Source of the DNA: an uncultured Clostridia bacterium
GTDB lineage: Bacteria > Bacillota > Clostridia > TANB77 > CAG-508
Assembly: GCA_944389395.1 (NCBI GenBank)
Contig: CALXME010000001.1
Coordinates: 67,957 to 131,956 of the forward strand
DNA: 64,000 bases
Direction of reading: 5' to 3'
Part shown: one piece after another, positions 20,708 to 62,675 of the stretch
How positions within the stretch are numbered: the stretch's first letter is position 1
Layout: every line of letters begins with the position of its first letter
The notes under the pieces: model-generated
Seen by the model: only the letters and a program-made list of their open reading frames with translations
The model's database searches: none
What the model was told of the DNA's origin: nothing
Made by a program: the position numbers and the translations under genes

Positions 20708-21110
20708 AAGTATAAAAGGAAAAAATTGTTGTATTAATTATTGATACAACAATTTTTTTCTTTCTGAAGAAATTTTTGTAAAAATATGTAAAAAACTATT
20801 GACATAATATGGAAATGATGTTATCATGTAATAAATTAATTCAAAGATATTTTAGTTCAAGTCAAAAAATTTTGTTTTAAAGTCAAAATTAAATTCCAAG
20901 AAAAGTAAAAAAAATACTACCATTAGAATATGGGAGGTCATTATGATATTCTTTCATTTATAGTACCCCAGTACCCCCAAAAAAATCCTTTTTATAAGTT
21001 AATATCCTCACTTAACATTTAATCGATTGTAATCTATAGCAAATAAGTTTTTTATTTTATGAATATGATAATGACTTCCCATATTTTAATGGTAGTAAAG
21101 AAAGGAAAAT

Positions 21111-22661
21111 ATGTTAGCAATTACAAAAAGTGTAGCTTTACAAGGTTTAGATGGATATATTGTATCTATTCAAGTAGATATTTCATCTGGTATACCACAA
21201 TTTGAGATAGTGGGATTACCAGATGCCAGTGTAAAAGAATCAAAAGAAAGAGTAAAAACAGCTATTAGAAATTGCCAATGGGAATTTTTAAGTAGGAAAA
21301 TTGTTGTTAATTTAGCTCCGGCAGATATTAGAAAAGAGGGCTCAGGATTTGATTTACCAATTGCTATAGGGATTTTAGTTGCTTCTCAAGGTGAGAAAAA
21401 TGATGTGGTTCAAAACTTTTTAGAAAATACTATTATTGTAGGAGAATTATCTTTAAATGGTAAGGTAGAGAAAGTAAAAGGTATTTTGCCAATTTGTGTA
21501 GAAGCACAGAAATTAGGTTATCACAAGATTATATTACCTAAAGAAAATGCTAATGAAGTTTCTATGATAAGCGGAATTGATATTTTTCCAGTTTCTCATT
21601 TAGAGGAAGTAATGGAACACTTAAATGGCGAGGGAATTTTGAAAAAATTACAAGCAAGAGAAGTAGATACTAAAAATACAGGAGTATATCCTTTTGATTT
21701 TTCCGAAGTTAAGGGACAAGAAAATGCAAAAAGAGCATTGGAGATTGCTGCTGCTGGAGGACATAATTGTTTATTAATTGGGAGTCCAGGTTCGGGAAAA
21801 ACAATGCTTGCAAAAAGATTACCATCTATTTTACCAGATATGAGTTGGGATGAAATGATGGAAGTGACTAAGATTTATAGTATAGAAGGTTATACTTCTG
21901 AAAATAAGCCAATTATTAAGATAAGACCTTTTAGAAGTCCACATCATACAATTACGGCAACATCTTTAATTGGTGGTGGTAGGATTCCCAGACCTGGAGA
22001 GATTAGCTTAGCACATTATGGGGTTTTGTTTTTAGATGAATTACCAGAATTTCCACAAAATGTTTTAGAAATGTTAAGAGAACCATTAGAAGATAAAGTT
22101 GTTACAATTAGTAGATTAAATGCTTCTACAAACTATCCTTGTAATTTTATTCTTATAGCAAGTATGAATCCATGTCCATGTGGCTATTATGCTTCTAAAT
22201 ATAGACAATGTAATTGTAGACCAGAACAGATAAGAAAATATTTAAATAGAATAAGTGGTCCTTTATTAGATAGAATAGATTTATATGTAGAGGTAGCTCA
22301 TGTAGAATATAATAAATTAGATAGTAAAGAAGTCTTGGAAACTTCTGCTAAAATTAAAAAAAGAGTAAATAAAGCAAGAATACTTCAAAGAGAACGATAT
22401 CAAAGTGATAATATATATACAAATGCGGAATTAACTCCAAAATTATTAAAAAAATTTTGCCAGTTAGATTGGAAAAGTAAAAAAATACTAGAAACTGCTT
22501 TTCAAAAACTAGGTTTAAGTGCAAGAGCTTATGAAAGAATTTTAAAAGTCGCAAGAACTATTGCAGATTTAGATGGAAAGGAAAGTATTCAGGAAATGCA
22601 TATCGCTGAAGCGATACAATATAGAAGTTTAGATAGAAAATATTGGAGGGAGGAGAGCTAA
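21111..22661 (+). CDS. comM: YifB/ComM Mg-chelatase-like AAA+ ATPase
   Basis: Lon-like N-domain, Walker A GSPGSGKTMLAKR, C-terminal ChlI-like domain. Confidence 0.85.
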   Translation: MLAITKSVALQGLDGYIVSIQVDISSGIPQFEIVGLPDASVKESKERVKTAIRNCQWEFLSRKIVVNLAPADIRKEGSGFDLPIAIGILVASQGEKNDVVQNFLENTIIVGELSLNGKVEKVKGILPICVEAQKLGYHKIILPKENANEVSMISGIDIFPVSHLEEVMEHLNGEGILKKLQAREVDTKNTGVYPFDFSEVKGQENAKRALEIAAAGGHNCLLIGSPGSGKTMLAKRLPSILPDMSWDEMMEVTKIYSIEGYTSENKPIIKIRPFRSPHHTITATSLIGGGRIPRPGEISLAHYGVLFLDELPEFPQNVLEMLREPLEDKVVTISRLNASTNYPCNFILIASMNPCPCGYYASKYRQCNCRPEQIRKYLNRISGPLLDRIDLYVEVAHVEYNKLDSKEVLETSAKIKKRVNKARILQRERYQSDNIYTNAELTPKLLKKFCQLDWKSKKILETAFQKLGLSARAYERILKVARTIADLDGKESIQEMHIAEAIQYRSLDRKYWREES

Positions 22662-28464: not shown

Positions 28465-28544
28465 GATTTTTAGTTTGTTAAAATAAAGTAAAAACTTATA
28501 TGATTTTACTATGTTAAAAATTCACAGTTAACATATTAATAATT

Positions 28545-28639
28545 CAAAAAACCTGATATATAGATATTTTTAATCAAAACATAGCTGGGGCGTAACAATC
28601 CGGGTCTTGATTTTCAAATATCTATATATCAGGTTTTTC
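28545..28639 (+). repeat. Structured ~95-nt element, copy A: 18-bp AT-rich stem enclosing a loop with the conserved core CAAAACATAGCTGGGG, then a U-run
   Basis: Arms CCTGATATATAGATATTT / AAATATCTATATATCAGG, seen directly in sequence. Homologous copy at 40285..40373. Confidence 0.6.
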
Positions 28640-28773
28640 TAATATTATATAAGATAGCTCTAAATTGTAACAATTATTACAAATTGTAAATTTTTTTTGA
28701 AAAAACTGTACAATTTAAAAAAAGAAATATATAATAAATGCCAAAGGGAAAGAAAAACTGGAGGAAATAGTGT

Positions 28774-40251: not shown

Positions 40252-40284
40252 AAAGTTACAATTCTCAGCATAAATTAAAAACAA

Positions 40285-40373
40285 TTGATATATTAATATT
40301 TTTGTCAAAAACATAGCTGGGGTTTAACGAACAGAGCCTTTGGTTGCAAATATTAATATATCAACTGTTTTTT
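40285..40373 (+). repeat. Structured ~90-nt element, copy B (same family as 28545..28639)
   Basis: Arms TTGATATATTAATATTT / AAATATTAATATATCAA enclose CAAAAACATAGCTGGGG. Followed by CTGTTTTTT. Confidence 0.6.
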
Positions 40374-40417
40374 AGTATATATAATTGCAAATTAATTGTT
40401 AAGAAGGAGGAAAAAAG

Positions 40418-44079: not shown

Positions 44080-44128
44080 TTTAAATATATTAATGTTACT
44101 AGTTAATGAGTAAAAAATAAAAAAAAAC

Positions 44129-46810: not shown

Positions 46811-47539
46811 ATGGAAACTTTTCAAAAAGAGATTTTAGGTATTCTAAAGAATATACAACAAAGTATTTCTAGTTTAGAAAATGGACAAGAAGAAATGAGA
46901 TGCGATATCAAAAATCTACAACAAGGGCAAGAAGAAATGAGAAGTGATATCAAAGATTTACAACAAGGGCAAGAAAAAATGAGAAGTGATATCAAAGACT
47001 TACAACAAGGACAAGAAGAAATGAGAAGTGATATCAAAGACTTACAACAAGGGCAAGAAGAAATGAGAAGTGATATCAAAGACTTACAACAAGGACAAGA
47101 ACAAATGAGAAGTGATATCAAAAATTTACAACAAGGACAAGAAGAGATGAGATGCGATATCAAAAATCTACAACAAGGACAAGAAGAAATGAGAAGTGAT
47201 ATCAAAGACTTACAACAGGGACAAGAAGAAATGAGAAGTGATATCAAAGATTTACAACAAGGACAAGAAGAGATGAGAAGTGATATCAAAGATTTACAGC
47301 AAGAACAGAAAGAAATGAGAAAAGAACAAAAGATGATGAAACAGGACATTGAAGAATTACAAGTGGGACAAAAAGAATTGCGACAGGGACAGAGAAATTT
47401 AGAAAAATCAATGTATAGAATAGAGCAACAAAGGATAATCGATAGTAATAACATAGCAAAAATTTTATTATTACAAACAAGAATGCAACAAACATTAGAA
47501 CAACATATACAAGATGATGAAATGAAAATTGCAAATTAA
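46811..47539 (+). CDS. Tandem-repeat coiled-coil protein (10 near-identical 14-aa units GQEEMRSDIKDLQQ)
   Basis: ORF with a strong RBS. Internal 42-bp DNA repeats. Confidence 0.6.
   Translation: METFQKEILGILKNIQQSISSLENGQEEMRCDIKNLQQGQEEMRSDIKDLQQGQEKMRSDIKDLQQGQEEMRSDIKDLQQGQEEMRSDIKDLQQGQEQMRSDIKNLQQGQEEMRCDIKNLQQGQEEMRSDIKDLQQGQEEMRSDIKDLQQGQEEMRSDIKDLQQEQKEMRKEQKMMKQDIEELQVGQKELRQGQRNLEKSMYRIEQQRIIDSNNIAKILLLQTRMQQTLEQHIQDDEMKIAN
46883..47302 (+). repeat. Ten 42-bp tandem repeats (in-frame), degenerate copies to about 47400
   Basis: caacaagggcaagaagaaatgagaagtgatatcaaagattta units with few substitutions. Confidence 0.85.
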
Positions 47540-54986: not shown

Positions 54987-55031
54987 TATATTTTAGCATA
55001 TAATATTAATGTCAAATTAAATTTGACATTA
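54987..55031. repeat. Perfect 45-bp AT-rich palindrome (ATATAATATTAATGTCAAATT-A-AATTTGACATTAATATTATAT)
   Basis: Seen in sequence between the convergent rluA-like gene and the tRNA. Confidence 0.6.
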
Positions 55032-55157
55032 ATATTATATGAAGGTTTATTAAAATTATGCATTATAATTTTTAGTTACAAGTTTAAATATTTTACTCTC
55101 ATAAAGTTTTAAACTATTTATTATTAAATAATTTTTTAATCTCGTGGGAGTAATTTA

Positions 55158-55231
<74 letters not shown>

Positions 55232-62639: not shown

Positions 62640-62641
62640 AT

Positions 62642-62675
62642 AAAACCCCCAAGGCAGACACCTTGGGGGTTTTTG
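62642..62675. terminator. Bidirectional rho-independent terminator (CCCCCAAGG-CAGACA-CCTTGGGGG flanked by A/T runs)
   Basis: Seen in sequence between the convergent ftsH (+) and the small minus-strand ORF. Confidence 0.75.

Follow-up and report, generated by a model that had tools for sequence, protein, structure and literature searches.

Introduction

The Correia elements (CREE) of Neisseria are intergenic, non-autonomous DNA transposons (MITEs) of ~100-200 bp that have terminal inverted repeats (TIRs), a central region that varies by subtype and the ability to form long hairpins if transcribed, and in each of these respects they are like the family of elements from Clostridia that is described here. 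However, the terminal repeats of Correia elements are 26 bp long and their duplication is TA, whereas the Clostridia family has 14-19-bp repeats that begin with GTTAC and an 8-bp duplication, occurs in another host phylum and shares no sequence similarity with them. Promoter, RNase III-target and IHF-site activities have been reported for Correia elements (PMC10969869). The pneumococcal BOX, RUP and SPRITE sequences are also small, modular intergenic repeats, in this case of a Firmicute, that cluster and insert into each other, and nested, tandem and mosaic copies are found in the Clostridia family as well, although there is no sequence similarity between them. RUP has a TA duplication and is related to IS630, while BOX is built from modules A, B and C and not, like the Clostridia family, from terminal repeat, arm and hairpin. 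SPRITE resembles a rho-independent terminator (PMC10969869, PMC3049150).

The REP, REPIN and BIME sequences, which are mobilised by RAYT, are extragenic hairpin palindromes that are dispersed in both orientations and form mosaics, and those copies of the Clostridia family that consist of the hairpin only look REP-like. REPs are GC-rich palindromes of 20-40 nt with a conserved 5' tetranucleotide, and REPINs have conserved stems, a variable loop and no duplication, whereas the Clostridia family has a conserved loop, covarying stems and 8-bp duplications. Invertons, finally, are segments bounded by inverted repeats and present in both orientations, which is also true of the loop in our family, but at the loci studied here no flipping is seen among consensus assemblies, no convincing promoter was found and the segment is far shorter than is typical. 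MITEs in Clostridia are poorly catalogued; the words 'Clostrid' and 'Firmicutes' are absent from a 2024 review of prokaryotic MITEs (PMC10969869), a keyword search of the literature for Clostridia MITEs returned none, and a literature search with our repeat and core sequences matched only unrelated eukaryotic primers.

We propose that two hairpins in a 64-kb stretch of DNA (the window, by which we mean the whole stretch analysed) are, in all likelihood, copies of a MITE family that is spread over the intergenic DNA of an uncultured, low-GC (~27%) clade of gut Clostridia. The observations are best explained by a previously unnamed family that is distinctive for its central palindrome with a conserved loop and for the occasional inversion of that loop. 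The element is a dispersed repeat and not a locus-specific regulator, and it is an ordinary kind of genome parasite, in which the conserved and sometimes flipped hairpin loop is the unusual feature. The family annotates otherwise unexplained conserved intergenic hairpins in an uncultured gut bacterial clade, and it offers both strain-typing markers and an explanation for MAG assembly breaks.

The two copies in the window

An earlier note on this DNA had drawn attention to a pair of hairpins upstream of mutL and of a beta-CASP RNase gene, and both are present where it placed them, with a common core and strong folding. The hairpin of copy A occupies 28545-28640 and that of copy B 40277-40372, both on the + strand. 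The neighbouring genes were also named correctly, as Pfam gives dCMP deaminase followed by MutL for copy A, which lies between the stop of the former (28464) and the start of the latter (28774), and an unannotated 526-aa protein followed by a beta-CASP/RMMBL nuclease for copy B, which begins 3 nt past the stop codon of the 526-aa ORF and has its right end, itself uncertain, immediately before the ribosome-binding site of the beta-CASP gene. The two copies are 72% identical over 112 nt without gaps (82% in a MAFFT alignment), and a repeat finder places the pair second in size among the direct-repeat families of the window (112 nt). Their 21-nt common core, AAAACATAGCTGGGGNNTAAC, occurs exactly twice in the 64-kb window, against 0.01 occurrences expected from shuffles, and neither the nhmmer profile described below nor mismatch searches found any further copy in the window.

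On the + strand, copy A folds with -36.5 kcal/mol (z = -9.7 against shuffled sequence) and copy B with -26.2 kcal/mol (z = -4.5). The - strand folds are slightly more stable (-39.6 and -31.0 kcal/mol, respectively), a difference due to an A·C mismatch of the + strand that corresponds to a G·U pair on the - strand. The long hairpin of copy A is formed by AAAAAACCTGATATATAGATATTT ... AAATATCTATATATCAGGTTTTT and encloses the core CAAAACATAGCTGGGGCGTAACAATCCGGGTCTTG, and where the stems of the two copies differ, the changes compensate each other (AG/CT in one, TA/TA in the other). A U-run that had been described as following the stem is indeed there, although not as a separate feature, since it is the mirror image of the A-run opposite and belongs to the palindrome. 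The two copies do share one orientation, as had been pointed out, but this is uninformative because all 63 ORFs of the window are on the + strand as well. These ORFs are of at least 70 aa, and the GC content of the window is 27.5%.

While the coordinates first proposed hold for the central hairpins, they fall short of the full elements, which with their TIRs span ~28513-28671 and ~40255-40402. Copy A (28513-28671, + strand) consists, in order, of a degenerate left TIR, an arm, the hairpin, a second arm and the right TIR, and can be aligned collinearly from GTTACAATTCACAG through CTGTGAATTGTAAC with copies at five of the loci that we fetched from other genomes (L003, L040, L001, L037 and L044). 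Its left TIR is the degenerate GTTAAAAATTCACAG at 28513-28527 (+ strand), of which 28514-28527 matches GTTACAATTCACAG with 3 mismatches, and its right TIR, GTTACAATTTAGAG, was found by a TIR search at 28658-28671 (- strand) with 2 mismatches. Between them, the RNA fold and an inverted repeat (I1) delimit the hairpin at 28547-28638 on the + strand; in the fold, a 23-bp outer stem pairs 28547-28569 with 28616-28638 and an inner stem pairs 28572-28577 with 28607-28612, and the columns of the conserved loop core at 28575-28609, compared over 58 copies, show either no variation or a conservation of at least 90%. Copy B (40255-40402, + strand) has an uncertain right end, at ~40391 or ~40402. It has a left TIR, GTTACAATTCTCAG, at 40255-40268 (+ strand) with 1 mismatch, a + strand hairpin whose arms at 40277-40301 and 40348-40372 are supported by an inverted repeat (I4, 25 nt, 96% complementary) as well as by the fold, and a + strand loop core, AAAAACATAGCTGGGGTTTAACGAACAGAGCCTTTG, at 40307-40342, which departs from the family consensus in its 3' half.

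No target-site duplication accompanies copy A, where the flanks TTTACTAT and AATTATTA do not match, and none is detectable at copy B, where the flanks are also without a match. The degenerate terminal repeats and the missing duplications suggest that both copies are probably old, and we infer that they are immobile relics. Around copy A there is in addition a weak palindromic symmetry at 28490-28695 (80-nt arms, 70% complementary) that reaches ~23 nt past both ends of the element, and that could mean either that the element went into a palindromic target or that it is nested within an older one.

Family size and genomic placement

A 20-nt core pattern, AAACATAGCTGGGGNNTAAC, was scanned against genome contigs from one genome per species of bacteria and archaea. 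It matched 57 stretches, every one of them in ~11 MAGs labelled uncultured Clostridia or Clostridium, with 21 exact matches in one MAG and 14 and 12 in two others, and every match forms the loop of the same type of hairpin. An nhmmer profile was then built from 58 aligned copies and used with a cut-off of E < 1e-10 on the fetched loci together with the window, where it recovered 88 copies, among them variants with an altered core. The further copies that the earlier note had proposed to look for thus exist in number, by the core pattern and by the profile alike.

Outside ORFs of at least 90 aa lie 86 of the 88 copies. The arrangement of the flanking genes relative to the core could be classified for 68, of which 27 lie between co-directional genes of the same sense as the core, 10 between co-directional genes of the opposite sense, 20 (29%) between divergent genes and 11 between convergent genes. 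Going through the copies one by one, we find that a single subfamily, bounded by GTTACTAGTTAATG, is the main source of the 27:10 bias, which hints at a constraint that is specific to one strand and may therefore act on RNA. In 47 cases the downstream gene runs in the same direction as the core, and in 21 it does not. In three MAGs the hairpin occurs alone, with neither arms nor terminal repeats, squeezed between co-directional genes, and such hairpin-only copies lie 4-30 nt from the adjoining genes inside apparent operons. Copies also cluster and nest: one locus has three tandem partial copies (L005, 5238-5501), another has a partly duplicated loop (L035, 4451-4573), and in a third one MITE is inserted in the loop of another copy (L037, 962-1003). 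Several copies of the family are located at contig ends.

Architecture and target-site duplications

Full elements are 140-165 nt long and contain no ORF, and in most host genomes the hairpin forms the middle of such an element. From the outside inwards, each half comprises a 14-19-bp TIR, a non-palindromic arm of 15-25 nt, an AT-rich stem of 23-30 bp and a short inner stem, which encloses a conserved loop of ~30 nt; beyond the loop the parts follow in reverse order, from the mirror-image stem through another arm to the opposite terminal repeat. The boundaries are clearest in one MAG with ~20 copies, in which ~35-60 nt are common to the copies on each side of the hairpin and this common flank breaks off abruptly, its left limit being GTTACTAGTTAATG and its right limit CATTAACTAGTAAC. 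The types of full element are GTTACTAGTTAATG...CATTAACTAGTAAC (161 nt), GTTACAATTCACAG...CTGTGAATTGTAAC (159 nt) and a 141-nt variant. Between subfamilies the terminal repeats, the arms and the stem sequence all differ, whereas the loop is kept. A similarity between terminal repeat and core (ACAATTCAGG and ACAATCCGGG) was considered and dropped, as it does not covary in the GTTACTAGTTAATG subfamily.

Immediately outside the GTTACTAGTTAATG subfamily lie 8-bp direct repeats, such as TTTAGAAA, TAATTACA, AAAAAGTT and TAAAAATC, and the subfamily of copy A, bounded by GTTACAATTCACAG and CTGTGAATTGTAAC, has duplications that include ATTAGGAG, AATTAATT and AATAATAT. An automated test of the 13 copies with both termini found agreement at 8 of 8 positions in six and at 7 of 8 in one, and two more fitted after a one-base shift, whereas control 8-mers taken 12 nt further out reached a maximum of 5 of 8. 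Two MAGs have insertions at different positions of an orthologous region (L001 and L032), and these insertions are therefore independent of each other. For none of the copies did we recover a precise empty site. The miniature repeat element that the earlier note listed among its candidates is borne out, since the hairpin is at the core of a family of many copies that has TIRs and duplicates 8 bp at its target sites. The same note had named a match to a known REP/MITE family as a test, and in kind there is one, since the elements are MITEs, but in name there is not, as the literature search turned up no published family with these sequences.

At 44095-44108 of the window, just upstream of the GAPDH promoter region, there is an exact but solitary GTTACTAGTTAATG, the terminal repeat of another subfamily, with neither a hairpin nor a partner repeat nearby. 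It may be the remnant of an element.

Terminal repeats and the search for a transposase

In a metagenome scan, the terminal repeat GTTACAATTCACAGC was found on many low-GC contigs, where it heads short elements with unrelated interiors. The minimal ones are 43-47 nt long (L191 and L144, the latter with the duplication TTTTGATT), others are 85-150 nt, and a further family of 155 nt is built around a different long hairpin (L090, L102 and L183). Short elements bounded by GTTACAATTCACAGC were also seen at metagenome loci L116 and L094. Collectively, the GTTACAATTCACAGC-bounded elements look like a superfamily with one common transposase recognition end, and copies would move in trans by means of a DDE-type transposase that binds the GTTAC... 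terminal repeats.

Neither ~430 kb of MAG loci nor 120 metagenome loci nor the viral contigs yielded an ORF for such a transposase between these terminal repeats. Examination of the solo terminal repeats and repeat pairs in the loci did not yield an autonomous transposon, no repeated ORFs were found among the loci, two scans of viral contigs returned only an unrelated phage gene or chance matches, and a plasmid BLAST for a cognate autonomous IS gave no relevant match. MAGs usually lose IS copies, so that the missing autonomous IS is weak evidence. One possible lead to a parent is the ISPepr1 group of the IS4 family, whose terminal repeats may or may not resemble those of our family. This group makes 7-8-bp duplications and occurs in Firmicutes, according to the ISfinder summary.

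Comparison between strains

Related contigs from other samples were retrieved by means of identical dCMP deaminase or beta-CASP proteins, and their consensus assemblies were compared with the window. All 166 intergenic bases at copy B are identical in 10 of 10 other assemblies, and copy A has one orientation in all 8 assemblies that carry it, so at the level of consensus assemblies no flipping of the loop is seen between strains at either window locus. At the site of copy A, between the dCMP deaminase gene and mutL, two other strains of the window's species have a different hairpin MITE (L058, 3548-3714; L067, 1113-1279), with the stem GAAAATCTAAAATTATTTTATGG, a different loop and similarly degenerate termini. 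A third strain (L065, 3548-3700) has a hybrid of copy A and this second type of element, with the breakpoint in the arm, which indicates that the elements recombine with each other into mosaics.

Stem covariation and loop conservation

In the 58-copy alignment, 97.1% of 1334 stem cells hold standard pairs, compared with 79.7% when columns are shuffled, and when the pairing partner is slid along, at most 45% of the stem cells are paired. Changes on both sides of a pair account for 211 cells (59 in shuffles) and affect 15 of the 23 pairs. By our own count the alignment contains at least 15 distinct stem sequences, each nearly perfectly self-complementary, and only ~9 stem cells are G-U or U-G, the other mismatches being without wobble bias on either strand. 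Strict Watson-Crick stems, together with the amplification of subfamilies from master copies, make up the pattern of a palindrome that is maintained at the level of DNA, and we would not regard stem covariation by itself as evidence for RNA structure. More generally, strong covariation in a fold together with a conserved loop need not mean an RNA function, since a mobile element can acquire both at the level of DNA.

The loop core is more conserved than the stems or the arms, and this includes positions outside the search pattern; in a 13-nt segment outside it, AATCCGGGTCTTG, most columns are at least 90% conserved across the 15 or more stem variants. This is more conservation than the neutral decay of a selfish element would lead one to expect, and it counts against the MITE reading.

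Loop inversion

Six copies of the copy A subfamily, when aligned by their arms and terminal repeats, are collinear except between the outer stems, where L001, L037 and L044 have the reverse complement of the segment that is present in L003, L040 and the window. An asymmetric internal bulge flips together with the loop segment. A signed comparison with the arms across all copies gives loop states of 3:3, 10:2 and 2:1 in three subfamilies and of 14:0 and 4:0 in two others, with the 14:0 belonging to the largest, and the comparison graph has zero conflicts. Arms of 23-30 bp are shorter than the largest k-mers of assemblers and are spanned by single reads, and for this reason an assembly artefact is an unlikely source of the flips.

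It has been described (PMC8604942) that template switching by DNA polymerase homogenises the arms of an inverted repeat and inverts the spacer, and the same process can give rise to hairpins and keep them intact by substitutions that look compensatory (PMC8794818). We suggest that the perfect stems and flipped loops would be produced by intramolecular template switching, or by recombination between the palindrome arms, during replication, and template switching is adopted here because one mechanism covers both the perfect stems and the flips. The family offers a clear case from nature of what the model of replication template switching predicts, a palindrome whose spacer inverts while its arms remain perfect. 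The inversion of whole Correia elements in Neisseria is reported in work cited in the MITE review (PMC10969869), so flipping is not unprecedented for a MITE, although there the whole element inverts, whereas in the Clostridia family it is only the internal loop between the stem arms.

Alternative explanations

The conserved loop, carried on a covarying stem, could belong to a functional RNA module that rides on MITEs, either as a cis-acting 3'-UTR or intercistronic hairpin (a terminator, stabiliser, RNase III site or protein-binding loop) or as a - strand small RNA of ~100 nt, transcribed from a promoter in the right repeat and arm, whose unpaired C-rich loop (CCCC, CCCGG) could pair with a Shine-Dalgarno sequence. 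We consider this unlikely, and a small-RNA or terminator role, as far as sequence can tell, would be at best secondary. Promoter activity, targeting by RNase III and the production of small RNAs are all documented for published MITEs (PMC10969869), and this precedent is consistent with such a module, as are the U-run after the stem on both strands, the more stable - strand folds of both window copies, the 27:10 orientation bias between co-directional genes and the placement of hairpin-only copies close to genes in apparent operons. Both window copies also have an inward-facing promoter-like site on the - strand, built from the right terminal repeat and arm, which is GTTACA-16-TATAAT in copy A (28671 to 28644, 10 of 12 matches) and TTAACA-17-TATACT in copy B; against this, by our own reading, the other two main subfamilies have not kept the arm promoter. 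On the + strand, a promoter scan found none between copy B and the next gene. On the MITE reading too, the window copies, if transcribed, would add a very stable hairpin and a U-run to the 3' end of the upstream message, which they may terminate or stabilise as a side effect. A scan for the canonical terminator consensus found none at either window intergenic locus, so that these regions contain no terminator-like site besides the hairpin, and one hairpin-only copy, in a related MAG, lies just past the ftsH stop codon (L025, 374-465), at the position that a classic GC-rich terminator (AAAACCCCCAAGG...CCTTGGGGGTTTTT, 62640-62675) occupies in the window; both points would suit an RNA module. However, although a U-run of 4-6 does come after the stem, the hairpin does not look like an intrinsic terminator, since its stem is AT-rich and 23-30 bp long and its loop has ~45 nt, where such a terminator would have a short GC-rich stem, a loop of 3-8 nt and a U-tract directly behind it. 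Nor are canonical terminators clearly rarer at gene-end regions with an element (8 of 43) than at those without (45 of 170). A terminator would moreover be useless between divergent genes, so that the 20 copies found there argue against a dedicated role of this kind. The near absence of G-U pairs and of wobble bias on either strand also speaks against an RNA, and the flipping of the loop in some copies makes one fixed RNA function impossible. The Rfam scan that had been suggested gave no matching family either: at gathering thresholds, cmscan with Rfam 15 found only a tRNA at 55161-55231 in the whole window, and permissive scans of both loci brought up nothing but general microRNA hairpin models from plants and animals, with scores far under their thresholds.

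Since the loop core is better conserved than its surroundings and the hairpin stands alone in three MAGs, we keep in view the idea of a functional or independently mobile module. In one form, which we think has only a slim chance of being correct, a loop of ~30 nt on a freely changing stem would be read by a dedicated protein, as RNA or as folded single-stranded DNA, and several MITE backbones would have captured it. If the loop is such a recognised module, the family would show transposons spreading a regulatory hairpin, and a transcribed copy could present a G-rich or a C-rich loop according to its inversion state, amounting to a slow, heritable two-state switch spread by transposition. In another form, the hairpin would be a REP/REPIN-like unit, folded as single-stranded DNA with its loop read by an HUH enzyme (Y1, RAYT-like), and captured only secondarily in TIR-bounded MITEs. 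The hairpin-only copies, which have neither terminal repeats nor duplications, fit this, strict Watson-Crick stems with a conserved loop are what is expected of a single-stranded hairpin substrate, and a terminal repeat that heads many unrelated interiors suggests that the hairpin is an exchangeable module. Yet it is improbable, as most copies have terminal repeats and 8-bp duplications, neither of which HUH transposition yields, no RAYT or IS200-like gene was noticed, the loci have no repeated ORFs, and the mosaic at L065 breaks in the arm and not at the hairpin boundary, which fits recombination between MITEs better. The presence of both loop orientations inside three subfamilies recalls, lastly, an inverton. 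The element would then be a phase-variable switch, and the loop, which might carry a promoter, would be turned round between the stem repeats by a site-specific recombinase. A sigma-70-like TTG(A/G/T)CA-17-AACAAT can be read over the inner stem and loop in several subfamilies, and the 47:21 co-orientation of the downstream gene would suit such a switch. We nonetheless regard it as very improbable indeed: the 10 of 10 assemblies at copy B and the 8 carrying copy A show no orientation polymorphism, a promoter scan finds none within the loops of the two window copies, no flip occurs in the largest subfamily, and the invertible segment is only ~50-60 bp, which is very short for protein-mediated synapsis. 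The MITE reading, with the loop inverted by template switching, is the one that we prefer.

A number of other known sequences were compared with the element by eye, and each failed on spacing or on consensus positions. They were sigma-54, sigma-B and ECF promoters, the IHF site, Chi, KOPS, parS, dif, cre, Rex operators, integron attC, the tRNA T-arm, retron, CRISPR and IS110 bridge RNA.

Further features of the window

The tRNA at 55161-55231, on the - strand, is the only one in the window and adjoins a perfect 22-bp palindrome at 54997-55041. A pair of inverted 37-nt arms, 92% complementary and 109 nt apart, occupies 20915-20951 and 21061-21097, in a gap of 403 nt ahead of an ORF whose start is at 21111; it is unrelated to the MITE family and has no Rfam match. 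At 46883-47321, inside the ORF 46811-47539, there is a 42-nt tandem repeat of 10.5 copies with a 91% match, which would encode a 14-residue protein repeat.
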